Made by a program: the position numbers and the translations under genes
Shown here: one piece after another, positions 32,318 to 46,832 of the stretch
Layout: each line of letters starts with the position of its first letter
How positions within the stretch are numbered: the stretch's first letter is position 1
The notes under the pieces: model-generated
The model's input: only the letters and a program-made list of their open reading frames with translations
Database searches by the model: none
Told to the model about the DNA's origin: nothing
Source: Thermoplasmatales archaeon
GTDB lineage: Archaea > Thermoplasmatota > Thermoplasmata > Thermoplasmatales > Thermoplasmataceae
DNA: 64,000 nucleotides
Direction of reading: 5' to 3'
NCBI GenBank assembly: GCA_027310185.1
Contig: DAIDBH010000007.1
Span: 13,891-77,890, forward strand

Positions 32318-32329
32318 ATGCAGGTGCCG
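32318..32329 (-). repeat. att site: duplicated 3' end of tRNA-Gly
   Basis: ATGCAGGTGCCG identical to 46757-46768. Confidence 0.88.
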
Positions 32330-32377
32330 TGCATATATATTCAAGTCCAAAACACACACAAGTTATTTAAGCGTTGA

Positions 32378-33643
32378 ATGCTTTACATGTTCATGGATTA
32401 CACAGTGAACCTCGCAAGAGAAAGAGAAAATCTGTATAAAATCAACATACCAGATGATGCCAAAACTTCTATTGTTCACTTTATTAGAGATATGAGTATA
32501 GAAGGTCTTTCAGCAGGTCGGCTATATGCCTATACACTTAGATTGAAGATTATCGCACTCGATTTTCAAGAAAGTTTCATGAATCCTAGTCAGGACAGCG
32601 TTAAAGACTTCATGGCAAGGTTTCAAAATAGGCCCGTTAAATGGGGAGGAGGGAAGGAACATCTCCCAACAGATAACGCCATTCAAGCATATCAGGTTAC
32701 TTTCAAGCGTTTCTATAAATGGCTTCTGGGCAATAATGAATCCTACCCAGATTGCGTAAAGTGGATCAAAATCAAAAGTCCCCACCGGAGCAAACAGAAA
32801 AAACCAGAAAGTGTGATCTCCGAGAGTGAGCTTCAGAACCTACTTGATGCTTGCCTTAATGCCCGCGATAGAGCACTGATCAGCCTTCTATACGACTCTG
32901 GATGCAGAATCGGCGAACTACTCAGCATGAACGTAATAGATCTTGCTTTCGACCAGTATGGTGCCAAGATCACTGTGTCAGGAAAGACAGGGGTTAGAGT
33001 GGTTAGGATCGTCGGTGACTCTACTATATATTTGAGGGAATGGCTCAAGAACCATCCTGACAGGGATAATGCAAAGGCGCCACTATTTACAAGATTGGAC
33101 GGCGAAATAAGAGAGAGAATGGACTATGAGCAAGTACATGCACTGTTCAGAAAGGTTTCGAAGAGATCGGATATAAATAGGAGAATATACCCTCATCTAT
33201 TCCGTCACACCCGGGCTACCTTGCTTTCAATGAACTTAAAAGAACCTCTCCTCGAGAAAACTATGGGATGGGTTTATGGATCTCGCATGTCACAGGTATA
33301 TGTCCATTTAAGTGATTCCGACGTAGACAATGCAGTCCTGAGGTCTCATGGGATAATGGTTGACAATAAGAGTGATGAGCTTCCAAGACCAAAGGAGTGC
33401 CCTCGATGTGGTGAAAAGAATCCTAATGGAGCTAAATACTGCCGTAAATGCTGGTTACCATTAACCATTGATGCAACACTAGAACTAAAGGAAAAGGAAG
33501 AGCATATTCAAAAGGAACTAGAATCTAAGGGGCTGATCGACGATAAGATAAGGGCTTTGATTGAGAACATGCCTGAATCTGAAAGAACCGGAATACTCAC
33601 ATCCATAATAGAAATGGCACTCAGGGAAAAAGAAAAAAAATAA
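32378..33643 (+). CDS. Tyrosine recombinase/integrase with C-terminal zinc ribbon
   Basis: SGCRIGE (R), GKTG (K), HLFRH, MGW, QVYVH (Y); CPRCG...CRKC. Confidence 0.95.
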   Translation: MLYMFMDYTVNLARERENLYKINIPDDAKTSIVHFIRDMSIEGLSAGRLYAYTLRLKIIALDFQESFMNPSQDSVKDFMARFQNRPVKWGGGKEHLPTDNAIQAYQVTFKRFYKWLLGNNESYPDCVKWIKIKSPHRSKQKKPESVISESELQNLLDACLNARDRALISLLYDSGCRIGELLSMNVIDLAFDQYGAKITVSGKTGVRVVRIVGDSTIYLREWLKNHPDRDNAKAPLFTRLDGEIRERMDYEQVHALFRKVSKRSDINRRIYPHLFRHTRATLLSMNLKEPLLEKTMGWVYGSRMSQVYVHLSDSDVDNAVLRSHGIMVDNKSDELPRPKECPRCGEKNPNGAKYCRKCWLPLTIDATLELKEKEEHIQKELESKGLIDDKIRALIENMPESERTGILTSIIEMALREKEKK

Positions 33644-34156
33644 CTTCCGATTAAAAATAGAAAATATTTAGAGATCCTTCAACGTCTATGGTCATAATAG
33701 ATCTTTTTACATGGAAGGACTCCGGTCAAATAATCGAGTTTTAACAAAAAAGTATCATTAACTTGGGTTCTCACAATTCGTTGATAGGTCATGATGTAAT
33801 TATACCATGTCATCTGTCCTGTTTCCTATAACCTAAGGTAAACGAACTTATTTTGTTAAGGTAACCTTGAATCGTTAGGTATCACTTTTAAGGATCTCAA
33901 AAAATCATTTAGGCCAAAACTCATGAGATTAATCGGTAACGTATCGGTATTCTTTCGATGTATTACCAGGACATGCATCTTATTTTAAGATGGTCCATAC
34001 TGGTAGTCGAGATCTCTAAAAGAATAGGGATAGATTATATTCGCTGACTTCAGGCCAGAACTGAGCTGTCATTTAGACTTTTTTATGTATATAATATGAC
34101 ATTTTACATAGGCTATCGATAAAAACAGCGTGAATATAAGGATTTTATCAATATTC

Positions 34157-34963
34157 TTATCGATGATCTATCGATGGCTTATCGATGTCCTTTCGATCAT
34201 TCACATGCTTGAGATTCTTCAACGAGTTTGGATTGATATTCCTCTTCAGCTTCTTCCTGCCTTCCTTGTTGTCTGCCATCGAGTGCAGGAGCTTCTGGAC
34301 TTCCTTCTGCTTCTTCCTTATCTCTGTATCCCTCTTTGCTTCATACTGATCAATTAACCACTTTGGTGGAAGGGAAAACTGGACAGTCTTCACTGTTACT
34401 GTCCTTGTCCTCATCCCCTTGTTTGGTGTCTGGACCCTGGGATACACCATGAAGTCATCACCTGCCTTGAAGGGATTTGGTTCAGGGAGCTTTATCTTGA
34501 ATACGCCCTGTTCCTTTGTGGCTTCAAAGAAGATGTTGATCAGGCCTCTTGTCTGCGAATCAATGTAATTCCACTTTGGAACTGTGATAAAAGTTATTAG
34601 ATTACGATACCTGAAAGACTGAGCCACTACGGATATAGCCTTATTCTGGACTGACTGCCAGTCCCTTGCATTCATGAAAACACCGGCATCATCCAGGATG
34701 ACTGAATTGCCTTTCCTCAGGTTTCCGTCAATGACATAATCCACAAAATCCGTAACATCAAACATGACCTTCCCCTGGTTGTATGTTGCATCACATGTAT
34801 ATGCAAGCTCCAGGGCAGAATATGACTTGCCACTGCCTCTTGGTCCTACAAAGAGTCCAAGGACATCCATGTTCCTTGCGATCCTGTTTCTTATCCAGGG
34901 CATCAGCCAAACATCATATCTACCTCTGGAATATTGGGGATCTTCAAAGGGCAGTTTCATCAT
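34157..34963 (-). CDS. P-loop ATPase, Zot/inovirus pI-like or viral NTPase-like
   Basis: Walker A GPRGSGKS, Walker B VILDDAG followed by F.NARDW.S..N, then FRYR...FITVP...ID...R. Confidence 0.75.
   Translation of the reverse strand: MMKLPFEDPQYSRGRYDVWLMPWIRNRIARNMDVLGLFVGPRGSGKSYSALELAYTCDATYNQGKVMFDVTDFVDYVIDGNLRKGNSVILDDAGVFMNARDWQSVQNKAISVVAQSFRYRNLITFITVPKWNYIDSQTRGLINIFFEATKEQGVFKIKLPEPNPFKAGDDFMVYPRVQTPNKGMRTRTVTVKTVQFSLPPKWLIDQYEAKRDTEIRKKQKEVQKLLHSMADNKEGRKKLKRNINPNSLKNLKHVNDRKDIDKPSIDHR
34158..34198. repeat. Iteron-like tandem TATCGATG repeats with 11-bp period
   Basis: TATCGATG at 34158, 34169, 34180 and TTTCGATC at 34191; another TATCGAT at 34114. Confidence 0.7.
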
Positions 34964-35025
34964 GATCACACCCTTCAAGTTTTGTCATGGATCTTTCTCC
35001 CACAGTCCTTACAAAATCATCCATC

Positions 35026-35418
35026 TTAATCAGCCCTCACATCGTAATCTTCATCGTTTTCTACCATGTCCAGTGAATCACCAGAGGCAAGCACTATCTC
35101 AGTCTTACCATCTACCCTGAGTTCAAGGCCTTTCTCGGTTCTCACGATTTCACCGGTTCTCTTGGCCCCTGCTCCTTCATACCTGCTTCCGGATAGCCTG
35201 AATACTGACTCAATCATTACAACCGGATCATCAGGACCATCTACTTCAGATAGGCCTATTCCATCATTCTTGAACAATGTAAAGTCCTCGAAGTGGTTGC
35301 ATGCCGGTTCTGTCATTATCCTGTTAATTGTAGTTATGGCAGGACAGTAAGGGCAGCTTACCGGAACATCCTTCAATGAAGGGTCCTGCCTGACATAAAC
35401 CCTGGTTACGTTCTTCAT
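35026..35418 (-). CDS. Hypothetical protein with CxxC...CxH putative Zn ligands
   Basis: CPYC and CNH; upstream of the ATPase on the same strand. Confidence 0.65.
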   Translation of the reverse strand: MKNVTRVYVRQDPSLKDVPVSCPYCPAITTINRIMTEPACNHFEDFTLFKNDGIGLSEVDGPDDPVVMIESVFRLSGSRYEGAGAKRTGEIVRTEKGLELRVDGKTEIVLASGDSLDMVENDEDYDVRAD

Positions 35419-35505
35419 GCTTTATCTAACGCCATCACTGAGATAAACCTTATCCCATAAGCCCGGGTCCTGGCAAGTAGAACTGAATGCAATGGAATAG
35501 GTATA

Positions 35506-35549
35506 CCCCCCGTCAGGTCGATCGATCGAGGGAAATTGAAAACGGAAGG
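35506..35549. repeat. Palindromic/hairpin repeat, copy 1
   Basis: TCAGGTCGATCGATCGAGGG (35513-35532) exactly repeated at 39229-39248, followed by similar TTGAAAACG. Confidence 0.85.
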
Positions 35550-35691
35550 CTACCTCTTACCACTCCCTCGGGTCTATGGATATAGAAGAGGCTTAGAATT
35601 GCAATATGATAGATATCTGCCACGGGTAGCTGCCTTAGACAGCCACGCAATACTTAACAATTAAAAAAAAGAGGACCATCAGTAACAATCC

Positions 35692-35718
35692 TGTTACTAC
35701 ATTAACAAAAATCAATGT
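35692..35718 (+). repeat. 27-bp direct repeat, copy 1 (TGTTA-CTACA-TAACA site)
   Basis: tgttactacattaacaaaaatcaatgt vs tgttactacaataacaaaaatcaatgt at 38660-38686 (one mismatch). Confidence 0.88.
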
Positions 35719-35812
35719 GATCGATCTTACCTGAGGGATGATTGATCATATGCTATTCATCTACATGTTTTTGAATCTGCTGTCACTGTATTTTCACTTC
35801 TAGATTCTCAAC

Positions 35813-35977
35813 ATGATAGATTGGAGATACAGTATGAGTGATGTTCTACTCACACTTTCCAGGATCAAGATGTATGGGATGGAAAGAGGGGAGATCATGA
35901 GTGAAATACAGAAAAAGGCAAAAGAACTGGTAGCAGACCTGAAGCTTGATCTGGACATATTACGTAAAAAAGCCTGA
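35813..35977 (+). CDS. Small hypothetical helical protein (54 aa)
   Basis: Hand-read ORF MIDWRYSMSDVLL...KLDLDILRKKA; start uncertain. Confidence 0.4.
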   Translation: MIDWRYSMSDVLLTLSRIKMYGMERGEIMSEIQKKAKELVADLKLDLDILRKKA

Positions 35978-36151
35978 GTTAAGCTTCAAACTAAAAATGT
36001 CATAGCTGAATAGTTTTGAAATCTTTTAGGGTGATCATGCGTAAGTAATTATAGGAAAGTCCACAAGCCGTAAATTCCGGTTTACATGCCATATCGATCA
36101 GGTTAATATAACCTACTTGTCTAAGCAATTCCTTATAATACTCACTTAATT

Positions 36152-36484
36152 TTAATCGAATATACCATTTGGTGGCATGATACAGTAATGCCCACAGTAT
36201 CTTTTAAACTCTTTTTCATTTCTTATTACTATAGATAATAAATATAGCAAAGCAAGGATTTCTAAAAAGTAGTCAAAGTATATCAAAAAGATCACAACTA
36301 CTACCGTACCATGATATGCATTTGATAGTAAATAGTCTCCCCAGATAATAAGTGCAGAAAATATAAAGAAACCTATTACTTGAAAAGGTTTGAATCCAAA
36401 GATAAATGACTTTCTCATAAGCCATATTTTGGCTCTATTACTCATAGGTTCAACATATCTCCCATCTTTAAGTGGCATTTCCAA
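36152..36484 (-). CDS. Small 2-TM membrane protein
   Basis: 110 aa, two hydrophobic helices, AT-rich; downstream of the 661-aa gene. Confidence 0.6.
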   Translation of the reverse strand: MEMPLKDGRYVEPMSNRAKIWLMRKSFIFGFKPFQVIGFFIFSALIIWGDYLLSNAYHGTVVVVIFLIYFDYFLEILALLYLLSIVIRNEKEFKRYCGHYCIMPPNGIFD

Positions 36485-36612
36485 ACCTCCAAATTATGAA
36501 ACATTTCTTAGAATATAAATATATGTTATATCTAATATTTAATTTTAAGAAATAACTGCGTGATTCATTTTGGGTATTGAGTTTTTTCAAGAACATTTCA
36601 CATCCTTCCTTA

Positions 36613-38598
36613 TCAAGTATAGAATATATAAACAGAAGTGGACAGACTTGCATCGAACGTTTGTTGCTCTTCACATGTATTTCCTGTCAGTGTAGTGTTG
36701 AATAAAGTGAACCCCTCATCGTATGTAAAGTGTTCCAAAATGTCAGGAGGATTGGTTTGTACATTTTTTGATCCCACGCATACTTTGATTTCCTGTGAGA
36801 AAACATTGGCTACCTGATCGCAGCCATAATAATAATAATTATATACTTCTTCTGAGTATCCTTTGGAATTTGCTTCATCACTGCACTTAAATTGACCATT
36901 GACATATATACTATTCGTCATAACTTTGTGATCAGGATCTTGGGCATATGATCCTAAACCGATTGCAACTGTGCTTCCAAATACTATTAATCCCACTGCT
37001 GTAACGCCAGTTATCACCAATGAAATAATAGATGCTGCAATAGTCACCGATGCAAAAACAATAGGAATGAAATCACACGTATCTGTCACGCATGAAATAC
37101 CTGTAAGATTATACCTAGATGTCTGTAAGCACCCCAGATTGTTTGATAAATAAGAAAAGGATACTGCTCTATTTGTAGCTGCATACACTTCGTGATTAGA
37201 GATAAAGTCTTGATAAAGGCATACTTCCCTTGCAGTTTGAATGTTTGCTGTGTCTGGCCCAGAATATGATTTAAACGATCCACTTATGGAAGATATCAGT
37301 TTACCATAAGAATTAAGAACCTTACCTTGAGTTGGAAACTCTTGAAGATCAGGGAATACATAACCATAGTTAAAATTGATATATTCGTTGAATGCATGAC
37401 CTAACATATGCTGACAAGTCCATGTTGAAGTCCCTGGGTATTCATACGCAATTTCGAATCCACTGAAACAACCTATATTATTCACTGTTGTGCTGAAATA
37501 TTGTTCATCCCCCTGATATGCTGAGGTGGTTCCTAAAAGAATACTTGTTCCACTGCTTGTCACCTCAAAGTAACCCTCCCTTATTGGACCGTTATTTGTA
37601 CATGATGATATTTCGTATGATATGCTTATATGACCATCTGCTGAACCATTTGCAAAACATGTGGAAGATGGCTGATTTATTTCCAGGCCTGAAAGAACAG
37701 GAGGATATGTGGTAACTGGATTGCATCCGCCACCACCTCCACCGCTACTGCCTCCCCCACCTCCTCCGCTTCTACTTATAGGTTTTCCAGTTGAGATTGT
37801 CGGTGCTATTTCCGGATCAATGGTATACGTCTCGTGAGCACTTAACCTGACAGGACCGAATGAAAGTATTAATGCATTATAACCGTTCATCTTCTTGATC
37901 TCACCCGTGTGGAACAGGTTTGAGTCACATATCCAGTTTATGTCAAGTCCACCTAAGGCTATGCTGGTATTCTTCTGGCCTATGATGAAACTTGTACCGG
38001 CAAATGAATGAAACGTGTTACTGCCGTCACCTGATATTGTGAAGTTGTCTGTGCCTGGTAATACCATTGTAAAATCAACGATGTACATTGCACTAACATT
38101 CAGTTTATTCTGGAATGCTACGGATGATCCCATCCCATACTGGTGGAAGAAGAAGACATCGGCAGCCTGAGTGCTGTTCCCATATCTTACCAGATCAGCG
38201 GATGTACAGTTATTGTTCTGGATTTCACGGGTATGGTAAGAATTGAAGTCTGCCATTGACAAATTTCCAGGACTGGATGATCCTGAAACATATGGTGTTG
38301 CTACATTGCTGCTCTGTGAACTTACGGTGAAAATATCATACTGCACAGGGTATTTAGCCATGCCAAAAGAAATGATCGGCTGGCTACCCATGAAGCATAC
38401 GGATTCTCCGCATTTTGAATAGAGGGCTTCTGGAACATTGCTCTGGATGTTTGAAGATGATCCTGAATTCTGTATTGCATTATTGAAGGAAATCACAGTG
38501 AAACCTATTGAGAAGATCATTATCAGAGACAGGAAAATGACAGTTACCTTGTTAAAACTCTTTCTTGCTCCCCTATCTATATTTAGTTTGAACTCCAT
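36613..38598 (-). CDS. Secreted/surface protein with poly-Gly linker
   Basis: N-terminal signal anchor, Ser/Thr/Asn-rich beta-type region, SGGGGGGSSGGGGGGC linker, Cys-rich C-half with hydrophobic hairpin. Confidence 0.8.
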   Translation of the reverse strand: MEFKLNIDRGARKSFNKVTVIFLSLIMIFSIGFTVISFNNAIQNSGSSSNIQSNVPEALYSKCGESVCFMGSQPIISFGMAKYPVQYDIFTVSSQSSNVATPYVSGSSSPGNLSMADFNSYHTREIQNNNCTSADLVRYGNSTQAADVFFFHQYGMGSSVAFQNKLNVSAMYIVDFTMVLPGTDNFTISGDGSNTFHSFAGTSFIIGQKNTSIALGGLDINWICDSNLFHTGEIKKMNGYNALILSFGPVRLSAHETYTIDPEIAPTISTGKPISRSGGGGGGSSGGGGGGCNPVTTYPPVLSGLEINQPSSTCFANGSADGHISISYEISSCTNNGPIREGYFEVTSSGTSILLGTTSAYQGDEQYFSTTVNNIGCFSGFEIAYEYPGTSTWTCQHMLGHAFNEYINFNYGYVFPDLQEFPTQGKVLNSYGKLISSISGSFKSYSGPDTANIQTAREVCLYQDFISNHEVYAATNRAVSFSYLSNNLGCLQTSRYNLTGISCVTDTCDFIPIVFASVTIAASIISLVITGVTAVGLIVFGSTVAIGLGSYAQDPDHKVMTNSIYVNGQFKCSDEANSKGYSEEVYNYYYYGCDQVANVFSQEIKVCVGSKNVQTNPPDILEHFTYDEGFTLFNTTLTGNTCEEQQTFDASLSTSVYIFYT

Positions 38599-38659
38599 AT
38601 CAAATTATAAATTCAAATTGTATTAAATATTTGTGGTTATTTTTATATGGGCATAAATG

Positions 38660-38686
38660 TGTTACTACAATAACAAAAATCAATGT
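38660..38686 (+). repeat. 27-bp direct repeat, copy 2
   Basis: See 35692-35718. Confidence 0.88.
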
Positions 38687-38859
38687 AACACTATGTAACA
38701 CTTCATGAGGTAGTGATTTCTTAATTTCCCTGAATGTGTTACATGTTTCATAGAAAAAAGCATGCATAATGTTCTATAGTTAAGACTCAAAACGTGAAAA
38801 TATAGGTCTACAGATAAGGACTAAAAAAGGCATACATACCTTTTAGAATGTAGTAGTTT

Positions 38860-38879
38860 ATGTGTTACCGGTAACACAT
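38860..38879. promoter_or_regulatory. Perfect 20-bp palindrome ATGTGTTACCGGTAACACAT (putative operator)
   Basis: Exact self-complementarity; overlaps ATG at 38878. Confidence 0.6.
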
Positions 38880-38976
38880 GACATGGTATGATTTTGATGT
38901 GATATTCTTTCCGGTGATCCTGGTCATAGCTGTTGTTCTCCTTTGGAAAACAAGCAAGAATAAGGGCAGGGCATAA
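38878..38976 (+). CDS. 32-aa single-TM protein
   Basis: Hand translation MTWYDFDVIFFPVILVIAVVLLWKTSKNKGRA: acidic N-end, hydrophobic core, basic C-end. Confidence 0.55.
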   Translation: MTWYDFDVIFFPVILVIAVVLLWKTSKNKGRA

Positions 38977-39221
38977 TTCAAGAGAACTGGATCAACTCCC
39001 CCGGATCTATGCAGCATATCAGCTCAGGCCAGATCAGGAATGCCAATCTAACAAGGATGCAGTAAAGCACCGTTTTTAACATCTCACCAGGGTTCAATAC
39101 ATTCAGGCCACATTTCCATGGTCAGAGATCTTCCTGGTAATCACATCCTTACAAATTACTAGAAATTACGCAAATAGAAGGATAAGCGTTAAGGCATCCT
39201 GAACAGCCAGGACTCACCCCC

Positions 39222-39265
39222 CACCCCCTCAGGTCGATCGATCGAGGGGAAGTTGAAAACGAAGG
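39222..39265. repeat. Palindromic/hairpin repeat, copy 2
   Basis: CCCCTC-AGGTCGATCGATC-GAGGGG then AAGTTGAAAACGAAGG. Confidence 0.85.
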
Positions 39266-39347
39266 TGGTCATGGCGACCGTGTCTGGCCAGATGACCCGC
39301 ATGATATAAATGATAATTCAAAGAACACTAAAGAATCGGAAGAAATA

Positions 39348-39485
39348 ATGGACCTGATGGTTGAGAAGATGATCCAGAATGGACAAAAAGTGAACAAGGA
39401 GACTGCCGGTATTCTTGAAAAATTGTCAGAGATGGCCTACAAGGAACTGAATGGGGAGGAAGATAGAAATGGTAAAACGAACTAA
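39348..39485 (+). CDS. Small hypothetical protein (45 aa)
   Basis: Hand-read ORF MDLMVEKMIQNGQKVNKETAGILEKLSEMAYKELNGEEDRNGKTN overlapping next gene. Confidence 0.45.
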   Translation: MDLMVEKMIQNGQKVNKETAGILEKLSEMAYKELNGEEDRNGKTN

Positions 39486-39711
39486 AACCAGAAGGAAGAG
39501 GAAACCACCTTCCTTTCACCTGCAGCTCAAACATGTTCTTGGTGGTGTATCGCCTCTAAGCCTCCTTGCTGCATTTGAAGTATTTTCAATACCAGCTGCC
39601 AATGGGTTAATAAATATTTTTGGATTTACGAGATTAATTGCCGGAGTTACCTGGATAGGAGTTGCCCTATTCAGTGGAGGAGTGGCACTATACCTTCATG
39701 AGGAAGAGTAA
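39469..39711 (+). CDS. Small membrane protein with basic N-terminus and 2 TMs
   Basis: MVKRTKTRRKRK then two hydrophobic segments; purine-rich GGAGG upstream. Confidence 0.65.
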   Translation: MVKRTKTRRKRKPPSFHLQLKHVLGGVSPLSLLAAFEVFSIPAANGLINIFGFTRLIAGVTWIGVALFSGGVALYLHEEE

Positions 39712-40471
39712 GCAAAATTTATATTTATAAGCGCATACTATATCCATGGATCACTCTTATGCAGGAACTCAAAAGAGTAAGTCAACTCTTATCCTTTCAT
39801 ATATAATGATGCTAAGCGGTGCACTCTTATTGGCATATGCTTTTGGTGCATTCAGATTTATCTAAAATTTACAATGTAACGACATTCCATTTCTATCACT
39901 ACAGTAACAATTTCGAAACCAACATTCTAGCTTAAAATATCCCAACATAAGGGATTCTATATCAATTACACAGTTTTCAGTCAATTCATTTTTATTCATA
40001 TCAAATTTTAAAACGATTTAAGGCATATCTCAGAGTCTCTTAATAGTATTCATCACCGAAGTTTGAGGGAATTTGACAGTTTATAGTCTTTAGGAAAGTT
40101 TTGTGAATTTTGGTTAATGGACCTCTCCTGGTAACTGAATTCAAATCTCAATCAGATTGAGACATGTCAATATGTCCATTTTGTCATGTCATGATCTTGT
40201 TTTGAATGATTTATTTATATACTCTTAAGACCCAGTGAAAGAGTTCTCTTAACTTACCAATCACAAACCTATTTAAAGAGTTGAATAATGTCATGTTATG
40301 GGTTCTGTGGTTCCGATTCCCAAAAACATGATGATCCAGTCAAGTGGAAGATCTCCAGGATCTTTGTGTTAATGGCATCGAGTTTTATCCTTATGATCAC
40401 TTTCCCAGTGTCAGTGATAAGGACCACCCTGTAAATTTGTTACTGTAGTAACAGGTTTCAAAAAAATATCA

Positions 40472-40750
40472 CTATTCATTGATTTTTCTTTCTCCTGACA
40501 GGCCTTCCCATTTTCCGTAGTATGCTGCAATGCTCCTTAATGGAAGATATTTGAACAGCTTAACGTCATTGGGCAGCTTGTTATCCTGGATGAAGTTGTA
40601 GATACTATAAGGGCAGTCAGGATTCTTTCCCTGCATTGCCATATAGAAATCACAAAGCTTCATGAATTTCTCCATCCTTGCAGTCAATGGTTTTGGCATG
40701 AACTGGTCTAATGTTATCTGAACCTGCCTTGAGGGATGCCTTGAGATCAA
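40472..40750 (-). CDS. Hypothetical protein (element operon)
   Basis: 92 aa, TTG start overlapping upstream stop. Confidence 0.6.
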   Translation of the reverse strand: MISRHPSRQVQITLDQFMPKPLTARMEKFMKLCDFYMAMQGKNPDCPYSIYNFIQDNKLPNDVKLFKYLPLRSIAAYYGKWEGLSGERKINE

Positions 40751-40920
40751 GATGCACCACCCTTCATGCCATAGTCATCATCGGGATCTTCATCCGGATC
40801 GATAGGCAGCTCACCAGGATCATCAGGCAGTATGGGTATGTCTATTCCAGGTTCAATATCCCATGGCCGATCAGGATGCCGTTTTTCAGGTATTATTGGA
40901 GCTGATCGAATCGTTGTCAT
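40747..40920 (-). CDS. 57-aa Pro/Asp-rich acidic peptide
   Basis: Hand translation MTTIRSAPIIPEKRHPDRPWDIEPGIDIPILPDDPGELPIDPDEDPDDDYGMKGGAS; coupled by ATGA and TTGA overlaps on both sides. Confidence 0.7.
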   Translation of the reverse strand: MTTIRSAPIIPEKRHPDRPWDIEPGIDIPILPDDPGELPIDPDEDPDDDYGMKGGAS

Positions 40921-41393
40921 TGTGGACCATCTCCCTTATGGCCATTGGTTCTATTCTTCTTCAGCCTTTCAATGATTTCCTGCCTCTTTTCCTCACTCAT
41001 TGAGTTCCACTTTTCCCTTGCTGCTGTCATCCTGGTAAATTCTCCCTGGAAGTATCCCCGGTATGGCAGCTCATTCCTGAGATCTTCCGGCATCTTCTCC
41101 CAGTATCTATGCCTTGTAGACTTTGCCATGCCGCATTGAGGATCTCCATCAACATAGGATCTCATCTCGATCAGGATATCTAAAGGACACTTTGGAGCAT
41201 CGCATGAGTCATACCTTGAACAGTATGACATGGTTTTGATTGAAAGAACTTCTTTGGATTGTGTCAGTTCGCTTGATTTTTGTCTTTCTGTAGGTATTGT
41301 CAGGATTGCTTGATACCCCCCTGACTGTTTATATTGCCCTGACTTACCATGGGATGGGAGACCCTGCATTTTAGATTTATTTGAGGATTTCAT
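40917..41393 (-). CDS. Hypothetical protein with Cys cluster
   Basis: CSRYDSCDAPKCPLD...C motif; start uncertain. Confidence 0.65.
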   Translation of the reverse strand: MKSSNKSKMQGLPSHGKSGQYKQSGGYQAILTIPTERQKSSELTQSKEVLSIKTMSYCSRYDSCDAPKCPLDILIEMRSYVDGDPQCGMAKSTRHRYWEKMPEDLRNELPYRGYFQGEFTRMTAAREKWNSMSEEKRQEIIERLKKNRTNGHKGDGPQ

Positions 41394-41637
41394 TTACAAC
41401 CACCGTTATTATTGCTGATTTGCTTATTATGAGCCTCTTCCTGTTAGGCTGCTCTATTTCCAGGGTATACTGGCCTAGAGATCTCAGAAAGCCGGATTCA
41501 GTCCTGTTGTTGACCATGGATATTGTGAGTGATTTTCCTATCAGGGATGTATTGAGTGGTTCAGGATTGGTATAGTTTCTTGGTCCGGTCCAGATCGTTT
41601 TGACTGGTGCTTTCCCCCTGTAATCACTCAAATTCAT
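41377..41637 (-). CDS. Hfq/Sm-fold-like small protein
   Basis: LIGKSLTISMVNNRTESGFLRSLGQYTLEI...RLIISKSAIITVV aligns by eye with Hfq Sm1/Sm2. Confidence 0.65.
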   Translation of the reverse strand: MNLSDYRGKAPVKTIWTGPRNYTNPEPLNTSLIGKSLTISMVNNRTESGFLRSLGQYTLEIEQPNRKRLIISKSAIITVVVNEILK

Positions 41638-41755
41638 TACCCCCTTCATTGAAGATCTTATTGCCGATATATACCAGGACTCTAGCCAGGTAGTATGTGA
41701 TCCTGTTGTCCAGGATTCTTCTTATTGTTTCAGCTGCATTATCGCTTATTTTCAT
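41624..41755 (-). CDS. Small hypothetical protein (43 aa)
   Basis: MKISDNAAETIRR..., abuts upstream stop and overlaps the downstream gene. Confidence 0.5.
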   Translation of the reverse strand: MKISDNAAETIRRILDNRITYYLARVLVYIGNKIFNEGGNEFE

Positions 41756-41756
41756 C

Positions 41757-42053
41757 TTAATTTGCCCCCTTTTTCTGGCTTTCTTCATTCCGTAGAAATT
41801 CCAGGGCAAGAGTAGACTTGTTGATTCGGACTCTGTTCAGGGAAAATTTCCTGATCTCAAATTCATAAAGGACTAACCTGAATAAAGCACCTGAGAATAA
41901 GGCCTTATTCAGAGTTTCATCCTTGTATTTGACAGTCATGTCCTCATCCGTTCTATTCTTGAGTTCCATCTCGCAATTGAAGAGCTCGCCCAAGTTTTGG
42001 ACTGCTTCCTTCAAGCATTCCATGTTTCCTTCTTTCACTTCTATACTTTCCAT
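41757..42053 (-). CDS. Hypothetical protein
   Basis: MESIEVKEG..., preceded by purine-rich GGAGAAGTGA. Confidence 0.6.
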   Translation of the reverse strand: MESIEVKEGNMECLKEAVQNLGELFNCEMELKNRTDEDMTVKYKDETLNKALFSGALFRLVLYEFEIRKFSLNRVRINKSTLALEFLRNEESQKKGAN

Positions 42054-42057
42054 TTTT

Positions 42058-42324
42058 TCACTTCTCCTTGAGGCTTGAGGCTGCCCCTGAGCCATCCTGT
42101 AAAAAATTAAGGATCGTAAGATCTGAGTTCAGCTCAGATATGGATATCACTTTCTCAAGTGGTATTTTATGAGTTCTACCCGACTTCAACCCGTCCATGA
42201 TTATCCTGTTGAAAACTACCATGCGAAGCTCACCGGTTAGCCTGTAAGGTGCATTCTTAGGGCCGATGAAATTAACACTCACCATCGATCCCTTAAGGTT
42301 GTCAAGATCACCTGGTGATATCAT
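42058..42324 (-). CDS. Small protein, possible Sm-like fold
   Basis: LDNLKGSMVSVNF....LTGELRMV..NRIIMD....THKIPLEKVISI; ATGA overlap with helicase. Confidence 0.55.
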   Translation of the reverse strand: MISPGDLDNLKGSMVSVNFIGPKNAPYRLTGELRMVVFNRIIMDGLKSGRTHKIPLEKVISISELNSDLTILNFLQDGSGAASSLKEK

Positions 42325-44960
42325 GGCTGATCACCTTCCTTGTGATCCGGATTATCCACTATGACGGCTTTGTGTTGCTGTACAAGAGTCCATGCCAGTT
42401 CCTCAGGAACATGAGCCATGTCTCCCTTGTGAAGATAATAATCCTTGTTGATCCAGGATACACCATTAGAAAGATCTTCAAGAACAGTTACCAGGACATA
42501 ATTTATTTGTTCCAACTTCTTTCCTGTAACACTGATTGTGCCATTGTGAAGTGTTATAAGGCCATCAGCTGCCATTGAAGGTAATACCCTTTCATTGAGA
42601 TCTTCCAGGGAAACTATCAGGTCCTTGCTTTTCGTTGGCCAGTTCTCAAGAATGGTTGAAGGCTTGATCTTTATCTCAGGTTTTCCCTGAGAGATCTTAC
42701 TAGCGATCTCAAGGATAGTTTTCTGAATCCGTTGAGTTTGATTCAGTCGCATTATTTGTTCTTGTTTTGAAGTCGTGCAGGGGGGTAGATCATTTTGAGA
42801 GGTAGAATTTACGGCTTTCTCTGATGTTACGGAATCCTGCACGACTTGTTGGGGCAAACTACATACATGATCAGTGTTGTTTTTGTCAGTATTATTTTCC
42901 ATCTCGCATGGCAAGAATTGCCCAAATAAGTCGTGCAGCTCATTCAACATCAGCGGAGCACGGGAAATATAGGTTTCCCAAGTCATTTCAGGTGCTGCAC
43001 GACTTGATCTTTGTTCATCATTTTCTTCTTCCTCTGGCATGGTTGCGAATGTTACTTTTTTTCTTTTGCCTTTAAATCTTCCTTCATCTATTGTCCGTTG
43101 AGCAATCACAAATTCATGATTTCTAAGCCAAACAGAAAACGTTTGTTGCTTCACTGGTTCGATCTGTTTCCGCTTGGCCCATGCAGCATAATCCTCATAG
43201 AGATCATCCACGATCTGCATATTTTCGTTATTTTCGCTGCTTGGCTCCGGAACAATAGATTCTGCCCATACTCGAACCGAATCAGCATGGAATTCCCATA
43301 ACTTTTCAAGTTCATCGTTCGATTTTTGACTTGTAAACCTCCAATTGTTCGCCACAAGATATGCTAACCCAATGAGTCCATTCAGGAAAAAACCATCAAT
43401 CATCTTCAACATTCTAGGTTTAAGGCTCTCATCAGCTGTGGAAGCTGAATTTAGGACAATTAAGAGCATTCTTCTCCATGCTCCCCCTGCCTGTGTGATT
43501 CTAAAGAGAGGAGGAGCACTGCCCCAGAATGCCTTGAAGATCGGTCTCTCGACTGTTGGATCATGAAACTTTTTCTCCATCTCGGCGGGTTCGCCACCGA
43601 AGAGATCGTTGACTAGGGCAAAGTCGTGAATACGAGTGTGCGCCAGATCACCCCATACCAATCCTAATTTGTTCTGTAAATTCTGTTTGCTGAAGTGCTC
43701 TCTTGAATCAGCCAATTTATGTGGGCCAGCTCTAGCAAAGAGTGATTGTGAACCTACGGTCAACATCAATTCAACCGCTGCTAGATGTGTCCCTTTCCCG
43801 CTGCCTGGGTCACCGATTAGAGTAAGTATTGAACGCTCCGTTGGCAAAGGATAGGTAGTAATCAAAAGGTACCCAAGCATCTCGTAAAAGGTACGAGCGC
43901 CGTTTACACCCATAGCGCCAACCGTAAATTCCCACCACTCACGTGACTGCATCTCAATTTCAGGGTTTTTTATGTTCACATTCATAGCATAAGTTAGAAG
44001 GTGACCAGGATTGAATTCCTCGAGCCTCACGTTTAATTTATGGCCATCCCATGACCCCTGAATAGTACTGTCATTCAGGGTCATTCTAAACAAACCACCC
44101 TCTGGCGGTTGATTTAGTTTATCCCACGGAATGACGTTTCTAGCTTTCAACCTCGCAGATACCTCTTCAACCGTGGAAGTTCGTATCTCCAAGTCTCCAG
44201 GGAGTCTCAAGCATTCCTCTAGTTCAGTGATACCTAGATTTTCCTCACTCTCTTTACGATTACTTTTTTCCTTTATTTTTTTAATTTCATCCAGTATTCG
44301 CCGATCATGCAACGCGTGTATTTGTTTAGACCTCTCAAGCATTAGTCTTCTGAGTTTCTCTAGCTCCTTAGCAACCCTCACATCACCATCGAGTCGGTAA
44401 AACTTAGAGAACGAAAAGAGAGGGATTCGATCAATCTTCGCTCCTGGAGACTCAATGGATATAAACTCCAAATACTTACTCAGATTATCCGCTATTCTGG
44501 AAGTTTTTTGACGGTCTAGGTAATCTGAATAATGTTTGATCCCTTGTGCTGTTCTGATCACCTTTTCTATTGGTACTTCCCTATCCGCGGATGATTGCGT
44601 TGTCCCTTCAGATACCTGCCTATATTCTAAAAAATCAAAAGTTCCAGATTGTATTGCTCTTAAATCTCTTTTAATTTCTTCGATCTCCGAGATCCTCTTC
44701 TTGATTATTGCGCGTGTCTCTTCATTTTTAGATTCATCGAGTTTTGCATTACAATATTTTTCATCATGTTCTATTCCTATCTCAAAATTTGAGCTGTGAT
44801 CCTCATCTAAAGGACGAATTCCTCTTCTAAATAGCTCGAATTGCCTTTTTAACTGCTCATGCATACTTGGACTGTTAAAATCCTTGTTAATGAATGCAAT
44901 GTCATTATTTGTGAATTCGTCCCCTTCTGCAGGTTTTCTCTTCATTGTTTCATTCAACAT
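42321..44960 (-). CDS. SF3/D5-like replication helicase with C-terminal wHTH and GINS-B-like domain
   Basis: D5_N-like FNPGHLLTY, EMLGYLL, Walker A GDPGSGKGT, EKKF, Arg finger GAWRRM, 'LYEDYAAW' wHTH. Confidence 0.8.
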   Translation of the reverse strand: MLNETMKRKPAEGDEFTNNDIAFINKDFNSPSMHEQLKRQFELFRRGIRPLDEDHSSNFEIGIEHDEKYCNAKLDESKNEETRAIIKKRISEIEEIKRDLRAIQSGTFDFLEYRQVSEGTTQSSADREVPIEKVIRTAQGIKHYSDYLDRQKTSRIADNLSKYLEFISIESPGAKIDRIPLFSFSKFYRLDGDVRVAKELEKLRRLMLERSKQIHALHDRRILDEIKKIKEKSNRKESEENLGITELEECLRLPGDLEIRTSTVEEVSARLKARNVIPWDKLNQPPEGGLFRMTLNDSTIQGSWDGHKLNVRLEEFNPGHLLTYAMNVNIKNPEIEMQSREWWEFTVGAMGVNGARTFYEMLGYLLITTYPLPTERSILTLIGDPGSGKGTHLAAVELMLTVGSQSLFARAGPHKLADSREHFSKQNLQNKLGLVWGDLAHTRIHDFALVNDLFGGEPAEMEKKFHDPTVERPIFKAFWGSAPPLFRITQAGGAWRRMLLIVLNSASTADESLKPRMLKMIDGFFLNGLIGLAYLVANNWRFTSQKSNDELEKLWEFHADSVRVWAESIVPEPSSENNENMQIVDDLYEDYAAWAKRKQIEPVKQQTFSVWLRNHEFVIAQRTIDEGRFKGKRKKVTFATMPEEEENDEQRSSRAAPEMTWETYISRAPLMLNELHDLFGQFLPCEMENNTDKNNTDHVCSLPQQVVQDSVTSEKAVNSTSQNDLPPCTTSKQEQIMRLNQTQRIQKTILEIASKISQGKPEIKIKPSTILENWPTKSKDLIVSLEDLNERVLPSMAADGLITLHNGTISVTGKKLEQINYVLVTVLEDLSNGVSWINKDYYLHKGDMAHVPEELAWTLVQQHKAVIVDNPDHKEGDQP

Positions 44961-44966
44961 TTTTGT

Positions 44967-45182
44967 TTACCTCCCTTGTCCTGTCTTAGCTAATTGTTTT
45001 TCAGTCCTCTCCAGCTCCTTAAAAAATGCTGAACCGTGGTATTTTGTACACTTCACAGAGGATAAACTTAAACTTATTTTGGATACCTTTTTATCTTTAG
45101 ATGTATTAATAAAATTACAGTCAGGCAGCAAAACTTGGCCGTCTTTTGAAGGGGTTTCCCCAAACCCCATCACGTCTATCAT
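44967..45182 (-). CDS. Small hypothetical protein
   Basis: 71-aa ORF between regulator and helicase. Confidence 0.5.
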   Translation of the reverse strand: MIDVMGFGETPSKDGQVLLPDCNFINTSKDKKVSKISLSLSSVKCTKYHGSAFFKELERTEKQLAKTGQGR

Positions 45183-45183
45183 A

Positions 45184-45339
45184 TCATAGATCCCTCATTT
45201 GCCTTTTTGGGACCTTATTGGCCAGTTTGACTTTTGCGTAGTCACTTAATAGGTCTTCTCCGGAAAGCCTTCTCCATGCCTCAAATAACCTTCTAGGGTC
45301 CCCGAACTGGTATCCACTCTCATCACTGTTTTCTAACAT
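45184..45339 (-). CDS. Small hypothetical protein (51 aa)
   Basis: Hand translation MLENSDESGYQFGDPRRLFEAWRRLSGEDLLSDYAKVKLANKVPKRQMRDL; GGAGG upstream. Confidence 0.55.
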   Translation of the reverse strand: MLENSDESGYQFGDPRRLFEAWRRLSGEDLLSDYAKVKLANKVPKRQMRDL

Positions 45340-45517
45340 GTTCTTTGTCCTCCTTGTCCCCTTCTAAAAGTCTGCTCGTTTCATGATTAGCAGCGTATTC
45401 AATGAGTGCGATTCTAAAGAGCTGAGAAACACTAGAACCAATTCGACTGGAACACCGAACAGCGAGTGCTTTTTCGTTTTCATTAAGGGAAATTGCCGTA
45501 ACTCTTCTCTTATCCAT
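45323..45517 (-). CDS. Ribbon-helix-helix (CopG-like) regulator
   Basis: VTAISLNENEK...SSVSQLFRIALIEY; first gene of leftward operon. Confidence 0.7.
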   Translation of the reverse strand: MDKRRVTAISLNENEKALAVRCSSRIGSSVSQLFRIALIEYAANHETSRLLEGDKEDKEHVRKQ

Positions 45518-45622
45518 ATTTCATCTAATGCAGGAGATGTTTATTAAGATTGCTATAATCTCTGTATAAATCTTATGAATAATATTATAAGTTTCAGCAT
45601 ACAAATCTGAGCAAACAGTTAT

Positions 45623-46642
45623 ATGATCAAGATTATTACTCAGTTCATGGCTAGAAGAAGAAGAATGCGGATTGTTACTGGAACCTCAATTCATATCGAT
45701 GACTGGCTTTATATCGGATCAACTGAGTTAATGAACACCATCACAAATCTCTCGGGTCAGACAGATTATCAAAACCCGCTGTTGACGCTGAGTGATACTA
45801 TTCTTACTCTCGTATCTTATTCGATACAGTTTGAAGATCTCCCATCAAAGGGTGAAAAGACGCTCCTGGGATTATTAGACGCTGCGAACAGAAAAACACC
45901 TGCAATTACAGTCTCCATAAACTACAGTGACAGATTCAAATACGTGATTGATTCTCTCATGACAAAGTACAAAGTTATAGGGACTAAGATATCATTTGGA
46001 GAAGCAGTGAGGGTTGCCCTTTATTCCGCTATCAGTAGATACAACAAAGAACCAGAGAAAATACTCTTACCACTAATGCTACTCGTCTCGCTTTCTAACC
46101 CTGTGCTTACTAACAAAGAAGATTATGAAAGAATAGAAGACATCACTACCTTCACTGTTCCATCTTTTGAACCCTCAATGAAGGAGGGTTTGAAGGAATA
46201 CTATAAAAGAATACCGAATTATTTCGTAGATTCTGTTCTTGACAAAGGCAGAAGTGGTCAAATCTCCATTGGCTACCTTGCTCTAGAAATGGCAAAGATT
46301 GAGCTGTCAAGCCCTTCGGCTTACAAAGAGACGAAAGAGGAGAGGCTGTCTGATTCTGTCAATTCATCGGGTTCGGAAGTGGCGGCTATGGGATACGTTC
46401 TTTGTGCCGTTTGGTCTAAATACACGAATGATACTTTGTTGAGAGAGACATTTCGGTCTGCCGAGAATTTGGATCAGCTGTCATCGGTCCATTCCACCGT
46501 CCAGGAATCTTTCTCGGCATACTCCCTTATTCTCATGATGCTTATTTATCACAGTTCACTCATTCGTGAGATTAAGACAACCATAGCAGAGAAGGTCCGT
46601 CCATTCTACCTCAATGTATTAGACAAGTTTTTCTCGGATTAA
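45623..46642 (+). CDS. Hypothetical protein, possible RHH-containing regulator
   Basis: 339 aa; ITVSINYSD...ISFGEAVRVALY resembles RHH; divergent from CopG-like gene. Confidence 0.55.
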   Translation: MIKIITQFMARRRRMRIVTGTSIHIDDWLYIGSTELMNTITNLSGQTDYQNPLLTLSDTILTLVSYSIQFEDLPSKGEKTLLGLLDAANRKTPAITVSINYSDRFKYVIDSLMTKYKVIGTKISFGEAVRVALYSAISRYNKEPEKILLPLMLLVSLSNPVLTNKEDYERIEDITTFTVPSFEPSMKEGLKEYYKRIPNYFVDSVLDKGRSGQISIGYLALEMAKIELSSPSAYKETKEERLSDSVNSSGSEVAAMGYVLCAVWSKYTNDTLLRETFRSAENLDQLSSVHSTVQESFSAYSLILMMLIYHSSLIREIKTTIAEKVRPFYLNVLDKFFSD

Positions 46643-46757
46643 GATTATAGATATTTCTATTGAAATATTAATATATTTCAAAATTCCGATCCTAAGTATA
46701 TAAAAGAAGAGCAAAAATAGGTCTATTGTGAACCACTGTTATGGACATTTATATGTA

Positions 46758-46832
46758 TGCAGGTGCCGGGATTTGGACCCGGGTTGAAAGCTTGGAAGGC
46801 TCTCGTGCTAGACCAGACTACACTACACCTGC
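46758..46832 (-). tRNA. tRNA-Gly(TCC)
   Basis: GCAGGTG...AGAGC-CTTCCAA-GCTTT...CCGGG-TCCAAAT-CCCGG-CACCTGC-A cloverleaf. Confidence 0.93.

Follow-up and report, generated by a model that had tools for sequence, protein, structure and literature searches.

Whether a 14,439-bp insertion (positions 32318-46756) flanked by an FAD-oxidase gene and tRNA-Gly(UCC) in an acid-mine archaeon is a virus, a satellite, a plasmid or a remnant was examined in the 64-kb stretch of DNA that contains it (the window). To our knowledge, no virus of acidophilic, wall-less Thermoplasmatales has been isolated. The published work located on such elements in Thermoplasmatales consisted of generic genomic-island surveys and one remark on a gene for a 'Fuselloviridae-type packaging ATPase' in an E-plasma genome (PMC10354927).

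Insertion site and integrase

Only two exact copies of the 12-nt direct repeat ATGCAGGTGCCG occur in the window, even with one mismatch allowed (chance expectation, 0.08 matches; at least two copies in 1 of 100 shuffles). The left copy (attL core, 32318-32329) duplicates the tRNA-Gly 3' end, and the right copy (attR core, 46757-46768) overlaps the 3' end of tRNA-Gly(TCC) (46758-46832, minus strand), consisting of the tRNA's final 11 nt plus 1 nt. Empty sites were sought at the loci of seven relatives that carry the left-flank FAD-oxidase gene. Three loci, all from the same genus (G012, G003 and G015), are empty, with tRNA-Gly(TCC) ~45 bp 3' of the FAD-oxidase gene, and the break point in the alignment coincides exactly with the 12-nt repeat; one locus (G011) carries the same element, and no tRNA was present at the remaining three. 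The att duplication given in the initial annotation was thus confirmed, and the element entered the 3' end of tRNA-Gly(UCC) by site-specific recombination, the 12-nt core restoring the tRNA. The predicted attP, read in sequence from the joined ends, has imperfect inverted repeats of 11 bp, paired at 10 positions, on either side of a 7-bp spacer (GGTGCCG), an arrangement typical of tyrosine-recombinase core sites. Related elements also adjoin tRNA genes (tRNA-Asp in L031, tRNA-Glu in L039).

The integrase, int421 (32378-33643, plus strand), is XerA-like with a C-terminal zinc ribbon and matched Pfam Phage_integrase (PF00589, 4.3e-22), a PHROG integrase family (5e-27) and, below cut-off, NCBIfam XerA (1.2e-31). 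Its gene is whole, as first described, with the start codon 49 nt 3' of the att core. Neither the circular junction, for which a search had been proposed, nor an empty-site joint was present in the contigs of three DNA runs, which is weak evidence because contigs lose rare forms.

Leftward operon and divergent ORF

Eleven ORFs on the minus strand (40472-45517; p64, p51, p71, hel879, p88, p112, p61, p90, p158, p57 and p92) make up an overlapping leftward operon, running from 45517 to 40472, in which neighbours overlap or stand at most 6 nt apart. Both this operon and its SF3-type helicase had been recognised in the initial annotation, and both stood. The helicase, hel879 (42321-44960), is an SF3 primase-helicase of P4/pRN type with a winged helix; it matched PHROG primase families (6e-15 and 3e-12) and, below cut-off, TIGR01613 (1.6e-10). 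Searched against plasmid records, its SF3 part matched five, including pRN-type plasmids of Sulfolobus and Acidianus (24-25% identity), where the matched genes are annotated 'phage/plasmid primase, P4 family'; by sequence, this part resembles RepA of pRN plasmids. For the prim-pol part, phmmer against PDB gave 0 matches and the structure model reached a pLDDT of only 40. The ORF that heads the operon, p64, matched an RHH-type family only weakly (DUF6290, E 0.0016), and the divergent p339 (45623-46642, plus strand) gave only weak RHH-type leads and was assigned no family, so that the 'regulator pair' originally proposed was not confirmed as written.

ATPase and p130

The P-loop ATPase atp273 (34157-34978, minus strand) is of the SSV1 B251 / His1 ORF16 / LSV-48N type. 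Its profile (alignment A3, 15 sequences) was compared by hhalign, giving probabilities of 95% for SSV1 B251 (E 3.8e-8, 191 columns), 93% for His1 ORF16 and 99.6% for the LSV-48N ATPase, and LSV-48N was also the sole record matched by tblastn among 50,697 phage records (27% identity, 3e-14). The earlier description of the protein as 'Zot/pI-like' was replaced by this profile type, since Pfam Zot (PF05707) scored 14.5 bits (E 0.024) against a cut-off of 20.3; assignment as an inovirus Zot/pI protein was rejected, as was assignment as a pleolipovirus VP8-like protein (HRPV-1 VP8, only 1.4% by hhalign). A match to PHROG_5484 (3e-10) carries the family label 'DnaA-like replication initiation protein', and named relatives of atp273 were found in viruses only (SSV1, His1 and LSV-48N). 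We know of no established function for B251-type ATPases.

In relatives of the window type, the gene of p130 (35026-35418, minus strand), a Cys-rich, zinc-ribbon-like protein, lies directly 5' of the ATPase gene. Its family (fam9) was found in 5 of 12 loci compared and also in metagenome loci L096 and L097.

Membrane and surface proteins

Hydrophobic segments in three products bear out the small TM proteins reported initially. tm86 (39451-39711, plus strand; start at 39451 or 39469) has a K/R-rich N-terminus, an FHLxLKHVLGG motif and two hydrophobic helices; tm39 (39746-39865, plus strand), directly 3' of it, is a single-helix membrane protein; and tm110 (36152-36484, minus strand), with a homologue in L032, has 2-3 hydrophobic segments. 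Among 169 genomes from the order, 21 carry tm86; nine of these also have the ATPase gene, and in eight of the nine the two genes stand at most 5 kb apart. tm86 forms tandem paralogues in G103 and G106, keeps 15 invariant columns across 13 sequences, and has 29 cluster representatives among 1.84 billion proteins; tm39 stands directly downstream of it in 19 tblastn rows from 18 loci, some overlapping each other. Many tm86 copies in other genomes contain stop codons. The tm86 profile gave 0 matches to PDB and, among PHROGs, nothing under E 0.005 and no capsid family, and no element protein has detectable homology to known capsid proteins. The initial statement that no capsid, terminase, relaxase or T4SS gene is recognisable was upheld in Pfam, PHROG and NCBIfam (18 ORFs scanned, 14 of them in NCBIfam). 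The term 'capsid-less' is not established, because tm86 (with tm39), a conserved cassette that travels with the ATPase in relatives, is a lineage-restricted candidate for a capsid or membrane protein.

The surface protein noted at the outset was confirmed in spk661 (36613-38598, minus strand; 661 aa), a membrane-anchored protein that has a hydrophobic helix at its N-terminus and two more at 507-552, together with beta-sandwich domains and a Gly/Ser linker. In the PDB comparison of its model (pLDDT 52), the N-domain resembled galactose-mutarotase-like supersandwiches, and no pleolipovirus spike was among the matches listed. The family occurs in 34 of 169 genomes, and since the N-domain family is also found in genomes lacking an ATPase match (for example G132, five copies), spk661 need not be a virion protein. 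No PHROG match was obtained for spk661, tm86 or tm110.

Mosaic structure

Three gene remnants were located on the plus strand: what is left of an IS transposase gene, its 3' end, containing an in-frame stop (35719-35983); p45 (39348-39485), probably left over from a second ATPase gene (C-terminal tail), which matches the tail of the L041 ATPase ORF and a stretch of L051 that lies 3' of the ATPase match and just 5' of the tm86 gene; and a conserved spacer with the first 17 codons of a small integrase gene (39957-40355), cut at 40355, of which codons 3-17 were matched (40310-40354). A 42-nt repeat with palindromic core TCGATCGATCGA (D1a, 35508-35549) has a second copy at 39224-39265 (83% identical); joints fall at these repeats in metagenome contigs, and D1a is contiguous in G004, relative to which the block 35560-39241 is circularly permuted. 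As the gene remnants show, the element is a mosaic to which at least two recombining relatives contributed. The 21 main ORFs are all open. The possibility raised in the initial annotation, that the locus is a decayed fragment of a larger element, was borne out in part: the element is a mosaic with remnants and has larger relatives.

Relatives and distribution

The larger relatives have many more genes, with an 8-10-gene block around the ATPase that is absent from the element; six keep this block (PKD-repeat giant protein, fam16, fam11, fam5, fam6, fam7 and fam12, plus fam17). One relative of the larger type, with an ATPase 73% identical, lies in the same genome on contig C2, is full of IS copies and ends at the contig edge. 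G011 (98% complete), which holds the identical element, gave one ATPase match only. Free circular relatives with the ATPase family were found in metagenomes (L114, 14,977 bp with an 89-bp terminal overlap; L145, 8,443 bp with a 47-bp overlap). The element family is specific to its lineage, in acidophilic, wall-less Thermoplasmatales, and no gene other than the ATPase is common to any isolated virus.

The element has spread recently. Its ends are identical in other mine metagenomes, against a divergence of 1.4-1.9% in the chromosomal flanks: runs X5, X9 and X11, from three studies, gave 0 differences in element pieces of 4,114, 3,803, 4,115 and 1,504 nt, whereas host flanks had 12 in 784 nt and 10 in 696 nt; of the 16 differences in a contig that bridges attL, at least 15 fall in the flank. 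Besides possible source samples, carriers were found in seven studies (mine waters, tailings and sediment), and RNA-library contigs cover int, ATPase with p130, tm110 with spk661, p92-p112, and p339. Four scans of IMG/VR returned no relative.

Comparison with known systems

SSV1 (Fuselloviridae) shares with the element the B251-type ATPase, a similar size (15.5 kb vs 14.4 kb), integration in a tRNA gene and a small two-helix hydrophobic protein (VP1 and VP3 in SSV1, tm86 in the element). It differs in that its att site lies inside its int gene, whereas the XerA-like int421 stays whole on integration, and in that the element has an SF3 primase-helicase, unsupported by any SSV1 match, and no match of VP1/VP3 capsid type (tm86 vs VP3, 0.4%; vs all 30 SSV1 ORFs including VP1, <20%, with single-sequence templates of limited sensitivity). 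The nearest ATPase in an isolated virus is that of the lemon-shaped Haloferax virus LSV-48N, which is likewise described as having no ORF that resembles a known capsid protein (PMC12714723). LSV-48N differs in its haloarchaeal host and 24.9-kb genome, and when ten element families were compared with 32 of its 37 CDS and with the 30 SSV1 ORFs, none reached 20%. His1 (Halspiviridae) likewise has an ATPase homologue in ORF16, but its genome is a linear molecule that has terminal repeats and encodes a type-B DNA polymerase, whereas the element integrates via att sites; no polymerase family, such as the protein-primed PolB of Halspiviridae, was found in the element's 18 ORFs scanned (Pfam, PHROG), and VP21 (ORF21) gave 0.2% against tm86 in a comparison covering ORF16 and ORF21.

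The Sulfolobus hybrids pSSVx and pSSVi combine a plasmid replicon with a B251-type ATPase, as does the element. With these and the pRN family the element shares an RHH-like first operon gene, and the SF3 helicase part of hel879 matches 'P4 family primase' genes of pRN-type plasmids; the element differs in size (14.4 kb vs about 5-8 kb), in a host from a different phylum, in having its own membrane and surface proteins and in that a prim-pol was not detected (PDB phmmer). Of the A153 and B251 pair of the pSSVx type, the ATPase has its counterpart in the element, and p130 stayed below 20% against SSV1 A153. Pleolipoviridae (HRPV-1), whose spike is VP4 and membrane protein VP3, resemble the element in a spike-like membrane protein, small membrane proteins, an ATPase, a small genome and a host with no rigid wall, but differ in the ATPase itself, VP8 alone having been compared directly. 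PICIs and inoviruses recall the order of int, regulators and pri-rep and the ATPase beside small membrane proteins; PICIs, however, occur in bacteria and are defined by genes that hijack a helper phage; no Pfam or PHROG family for phage interference or capsid redirection was found in this element of an archaeal host. The closest analogues are archaeal hybrids of pRN plasmids and fuselloviruses, in place of the 'PICI-like' affinity first suggested.

Interpretation

Since a plasmid-type operon is joined with a spindle-virus-type ATPase and small membrane proteins, the element may be an undescribed kind of virus. The reading that we prefer, on which the sequence evidence leaves us evenly balanced, is that of a temperate element of an undescribed lineage, either virus-like or a plasmid-virus hybrid, which is integrated here, is probably still mobile and would form particles. 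After excision, hel879 would replicate the circle; the B251-type ATPase, with p130, may work at the membrane, in delivering the genome or in assembly; a lipid-associated shell could be formed by tm86 and tm39, the basic tail of tm86 pointing toward the DNA; spk661 might serve as an adhesin; and particles would bud from the wall-less host without lysing it. A narrower version is tentative and somewhat doubtful: the element and its relatives would belong, as proviruses, to a family not yet described, whose viruses are temperate, contain a membrane (spindle-shaped or pleomorphic), infect wall-less acidophilic Thermoplasmatales, circulate in acid mine waters, have only the B251-type ATPase in common with known spindle viruses, and build their shell from tm39 and a new two-helix protein with a DNA-binding tail (tm86). 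With integration site and attP defined, the element family is a testable candidate, and its hallmark ATPase links it to spindle-shaped viruses of Crenarchaeota and haloarchaea; particles, if found, would make this the third major archaeal group with B251-ATPase viruses and add a new capsid protein, and if there are none the element would be another plasmid-virus hybrid.

An integrative plasmid with no particle of its own, its ATPase acting in replication initiation and its membrane proteins being cargo or serving surface exclusion, is unlikely. The PHROG_5484 label, the relation of the Rep to plasmid Reps, the lack of a capsid homologue among the matches, the wide occurrence of the spk661 domain family in host genomes and an RNA-library contig covering spk661 in the integrated state fit a plasmid, but the ATPase's exclusively viral named relatives, the conservation and ATPase linkage of tm86-tm39 across diverged elements, and the absence of relaxase, T4SS and partition genes (Pfam, PHROG and NCBIfam scan) speak against it. 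We consider it quite improbable that the element is a helper-dependent satellite, a plasmid-virus hybrid with its own replication and integration that has kept just the ATPase/p130 pair and a few membrane proteins and is packaged in particles of a larger relative in the same host. Its pRN-type Rep and B251-type ATPase do recall pSSVx and pSSVi, it lacks the block that surrounds the ATPase in the six larger relatives, and such a relative is at hand on C2; that relative, however, is IS-riddled and cut by the contig end, G011 has the identical element with a single ATPase match, p130 gave no match to SSV1 A153 at 20% or above, and the element itself encodes a tm86-tm39 cassette and a surface protein.

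Equally, there is little probability that recombination between at least two elements in the chromosome produced a defective composite unable to leave. The transposase, ATPase-tail and integrase remnants, the permutation relative to G004 and the lack of an excision joint in the contigs would suit such an origin; set against them are the open main ORFs, the intact int421 and att cores, the identical element ends in strains whose flanks have diverged, and a tm86 gene that, unlike many of its copies elsewhere, contains no stop codon.

Insertion site and attachment sequences

ARAGORN placed the tRNA-Gly(TCC) gene at 46758–46832 on the minus strand, and this tRNA was the sole match in an Rfam search. 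The 12-mer ATGCAGGTGCCG was found in two copies in the 64-kb window, at 32318–32329 and 46757–46768 (still two with one mismatch permitted; chance expectation 0.08 matches, two or more matches in 1 of 100 shuffles), the right copy being the 3′ end of tRNA-Gly. An FAD-linked oxidase gene forms the left flank, and triosephosphate isomerase is encoded in the right one. The left flank was searched over 31 genomes, with a match in 12, and the loci of seven relatives were then examined. tRNA-Gly(TCC) lay ~45 bp past the oxidase gene in three of these (G012, G003 and G015; same genus), the identical insertion was present in G011, and no tRNA was seen at three, the more distant ones. Since such empty-site relatives exist and the alignment with them breaks exactly at the 12-nt repeat, 32318–46756 is a 14,439-bp insertion, and the element coordinates of the initial annotation were borne out, with repeat copies at both ends. 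Base composition showed no sharp contrast, G+C being ~0.33–0.45 within the element and ~0.34–0.43 outside.

When the element ends were read as a circle (46740–46768 with 32318–32345), inverted 11-mers paired at 10 of 11 positions around a 7-bp spacer, GGTGCCG. Such a predicted attP would have the layout usual for tyrosine-recombinase core sites; attB, as present at the empty sites, does not share the inverted-repeat symmetry.

Integrase and replication operon

Pfam places the integrase int421 (32378–33643, plus strand) among the tyrosine recombinases (4.3e-22). It has a zinc ribbon at residues 341–363, and archaeal XerA was its nearest NCBIfam model (1.2e-31, below that model's cut-off). Further right, 11 ORFs with overlaps or gaps of at most 6 nt form a leftward operon (45517 to 40472, minus strand), whose first gene, p64, gave a weak RHH-type match (DUF6290, E 0.0016). 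The divergent ORF p339 (45623–46642, plus strand) had no family match, and its leads were weak and RHH-like only.

The replicon is of the SF3 primase-helicase type. hel879 (42321–44960), encoded in this operon, matched the TIGR01613 model 'phage/plasmid primase, P4 family' at 1.6e-10, below cut-off, and PHROG primase families at 6e-15 and 3e-12 over residues ~300–650, together with a weak winged-helix match. Among plasmid records hel879 matched five only, four of them small pRN-type plasmids of Sulfolobus or Acidianus (24–25% identity). Its N-terminal 300 residues gave 0 hits in a phmmer search of the PDB, and an AlphaFold model of hel879, from a 10-row alignment, had a mean pLDDT of 40.

The ATPase

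All Pfam matches of atp273 (34157–34978, minus strand) were sub-threshold (AAA_25, E 0.022; Zot, E 0.024). With the Zot match at 14.5 bits against a cut-off of 20.3, the Zot/pI-like ATPase of the initial annotation was rejected; the profile matches fall among spindle-shaped viruses instead. A profile of 15 sequences (the window ATPase and 14 of the 18 distinct relatives listed) was compared with SSV1 B251 (probability 95%, E 3.8e-8, 191 columns), His1 ORF16 (93%, E 3.1e-7), the ATPase of the lemon-shaped Haloferax virus LSV-48N (99.6%, E 4e-24) and HRPV-1 VP8 (1.4%, E 0.036); direct profile comparisons with His1 and HRPV-1 covered ORF16, ORF21 and VP8 only. The high values for the first three and the low value for VP8 assign atp273, at the level of sequence profiles, to the spindle-shaped-virus ATPase type, neither the pleolipovirus nor the inovirus type. 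A pleolipovirus provirus, an initial idea, was rejected on the VP8 comparison. Searched against 50,697 phage records, atp273 had one match, LSV-48N (27% identity, 3e-14), and against PHROGs it matched PHROG_5484 ('DnaA-like replication initiation protein') at 3e-10.

Close relatives of atp273 in public records (51 hits) are named 'hypothetical protein' and are without a Pfam domain; a passage on an E-plasma genome notes arCOG02242, 'viral packaging ATPase ... typical for Fuselloviridae' (PMC10354927). Among 169 genomes of the order, 29 carried the ATPase; 25 of these belong to the host's family, out of 102 other genomes from that family. The ATPase also occurred in 85 metagenome stretches, and no relatives turned up when IMG/VR was scanned with the ATPase, with spk661 and with the two alignments. 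One ATPase 75% identical to that of the window (P0049) comes from a MAG labelled 'Candidatus Parvarchaeum sp.' by NCBI, a label that could be a binning artefact or may mean that the element family reaches DPANN archaea living on these hosts.

Small membrane proteins and surface protein

In tm86 (39451–39711, plus strand), a K/R-rich N-terminus is combined with two hydrophobic helices and the conserved motif FHLxLKHVLGG; directly downstream lies tm39, a 39-aa single-helix protein (19 tblastn rows at 18 loci, some mutually overlapping). tm86 was present in 21 of the 169 genomes, and the host's family, with its 102 other genomes, contributed 18 of these; several copies elsewhere have stop codons, and G103 and G106 carry tandem paralogues; where a genome had both tm86 and the ATPase, they lay at most 5 kb apart in eight of nine cases. 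The family is narrow, with 29 cluster representatives at E ≤0.001 among 1.84 billion. An alignment was made of 13 intact sequences, leaving out truncated or stop-containing rows, L072 and the second L066 copy. Its profile yielded no usable match in the PDB, the PHROGs or the ESM Atlas; a tblastn search with tm86 at E up to 10 gave 0 matches in the 50,697 phage records; and no relationship was detectable with His1 VP21 or SSV1 VP3, each compared as a single-sequence template.

The surface protein spk661 (36613–38598, minus strand) consists of an N-terminal helix, beta-rich domains, a Gly/Ser linker and two hydrophobic helices at residues 507–552. It was modelled from a 12-row alignment (L085 and L094 dropped for stop codons; L089, L092, L093 and L095 left out) with a mean pLDDT of 52, usable at residues ~55–265 and moderately so at 300–390. 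In the model, residues ~55–265 resemble galactose-mutarotase-like supersandwich domains, with target-normalised TM-scores of ~0.5 to the YidC periplasmic domain and aldose-epimerase-like proteins. The matches in BFVD were to generic beta-sandwich proteins (TM ≤0.24); tblastn (E up to 0.1) gave 0 matches in the 50,697 phage records. Its N-domain family occurred in 34 of the 169 genomes, all within the host's family. Because the family is often multi-copy and is also present without an ATPase match (G132, five copies), spk661 may be a host-type surface protein borrowed by elements.

Related elements and mosaic structure

The window element is one of a family and is mosaic. ORF clustering across 12 loci gave two layouts. 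In the window-type layout (L031, L032, L033 and L034), the Cys-rich p130 (fam9; 35026–35418, minus strand) precedes the ATPase, with fam13 in between in the relatives. The replication operon of L034, and that of the second L032 copy, leads directly into the p130–ATPase block. The larger layout (n = 6; L030, L035, L037, L038, L041 and L042) has a conserved block around the ATPase, comprising a giant PKD-repeat protein (Pfam PKD_4, 2.7e-81), fam16, fam11, fam5, fam6, fam7 and fam12, further on an ArdC-N/zincin-like protein (weak matches), and then tm86 with a 210-aa integrase. One of these, L030, belongs to the window's own genome (contig C2; 15,106 bp) and is a larger second element, related to that of the window and laden with IS copies. 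Its PKD-repeat protein is at least 1,600 aa long and its ATPase is 73% identical to that of the window; the block of conserved proteins, an ArdC-N/zincin-like protein and the 210-aa integrase are also present. Among its IS copies is an ORF pair that looks IS200/IS605-like by inspection. A circular copy was considered for C2 and rejected, terminal overlap being absent.

Related elements adjoin tRNA-Asp and tRNA-Glu. Two ATPase-bearing metagenome contigs, L114 (14,977 bp) and L145 (8,443 bp), are probably complete circular genomes, because their termini overlap (by 89 and 47 bp, respectively). L114 is G+C-rich and comes from a different host group; by inspection, one of its ORFs is resolvase-like, and it also encodes TM-anchored surface proteins and a hydrophobic protein of 99 aa.

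Within the window element, an IS transposase gene has left a remnant of its 3′ end at 35719–35983 (C-terminal part, with an in-frame stop). Other genomes of the host's family match this stretch at dozens of places; intact versions of the ~260 nt are present at many places there, often at contig ends. The stretch 39348–39485 matches the C-terminal tail of the L041 ATPase ORF, and in L051 the matching stretch lies past the ATPase match, immediately before the tm86 gene. A small-integrase stump, of which codons 3–17 are left, ends at 40355, the point at which the homology shared with six relatives breaks off.

Two pairs of direct repeats bracket the tm110–spk661 block: D1 (35508–35549 and 39224–39265; 42 nt, 83% identity, palindromic core TCGATCGATCGA) and D3 (35692–35718 and 38660–38686; 27 nt, 96% identity). 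D1 was absent from the relatives' loci searched with up to 10 substitutions. The D1-bounded block 35560–39241 is circularly permuted relative to G004, since window stretches 38821–39241 and 35560–35989 are contiguous there (L032 9132–9958) and metagenome contigs join ~39221–39231 back to ~35560–35571, joints that the permutation explains.

Nature of the element

The comparisons above establish the integration, the type of replicon and the family of the ATPase. Three lines suggest particle formation, with tm86/tm39 and spk661 as the putative building blocks: linkage, protein architecture, and the viral nature of the named relatives found for the ATPase. A virus-like element or hybrid is put at even chances; the element works most like archaeal plasmid–virus hybrids and small temperate spindle or pleomorphic viruses. 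The features tested place it outside Fuselloviridae, Halspiviridae and Pleolipoviridae.

A particle-less integrative plasmid, which the plasmid matches of hel879 would favour, is judged unlikely, the same linkage and viral ATPase relatives speaking against it. The window element is without the conserved ATPase-surrounding block of its larger relatives, one of which shares its genome; that it is a satellite of such a relative is nevertheless improbable in our estimate. Equally improbable is a dead composite: the element carries three scars (IS remnant, ATPase-tail match and small-integrase stump), and all 21 of its main ORFs are open.

Spread, RNA-library contigs and CRISPR

Words of the element were present in 20 runs from nine studies, two of which are possibly the source of this DNA; the other seven cover mine drainage, tailings and sediment. 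Contigs from three metagenome DNA runs of three studies (X5, X9 and X11) were compared with the window. Element pieces showed 0 differences in 4,114, 3,803, 4,115 and 1,504 nt, whereas chromosomal flanks in the same contig sets showed 12 differences in 784 nt and 10 in 696; attL-bridging contigs in X5 and X11 had 16 differences each, in X5 at least 15 of them within the flank. Identical element pieces beside differing flanks fit recent spread, or recombination into diverged strains. Other metagenome contigs, at 90–97% identity, came from relatives. Neither an attP nor an empty-site joint was among the contig joints listed, and contigs cannot show rare forms.

Contigs of an RNA library from a possible source sample, in which DNA may be present, covered int, ATPase with p130, IS remnant with tm110 and spk661, p92–p112, and p339 through the tRNA into host genes; none was listed over 38578–40344, which for contigs does not imply absence. 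One 2,826-nt contig (35752–38577) spans the IS remnant, tm110 and nearly all of spk661 at a mean word depth of 1,270, against 86–109 for host-flank contigs, depths that cannot rank genes.

CRISPR spacer matches, named in the initial annotation as a check, were sought in one own-genome array and among relatives, and none appeared there. The array on own-genome contig C19 (28255–29453; 36-nt repeat, at least 17 repeats, at the contig end) yielded 16 spacers with 0 matches to the element and 0 to the fetched relatives' loci, and none of eight short DNA matches of the element in relatives lay inside a repeat array.

Beyond the right end, a 228-aa ORF (46893–47579) matched no Pfam family. In X5, X9 and X11 contigs, tRNA-Gly is joined directly to ~47575–47583, and because the ORF is bypassed there, it is variable among related organisms.
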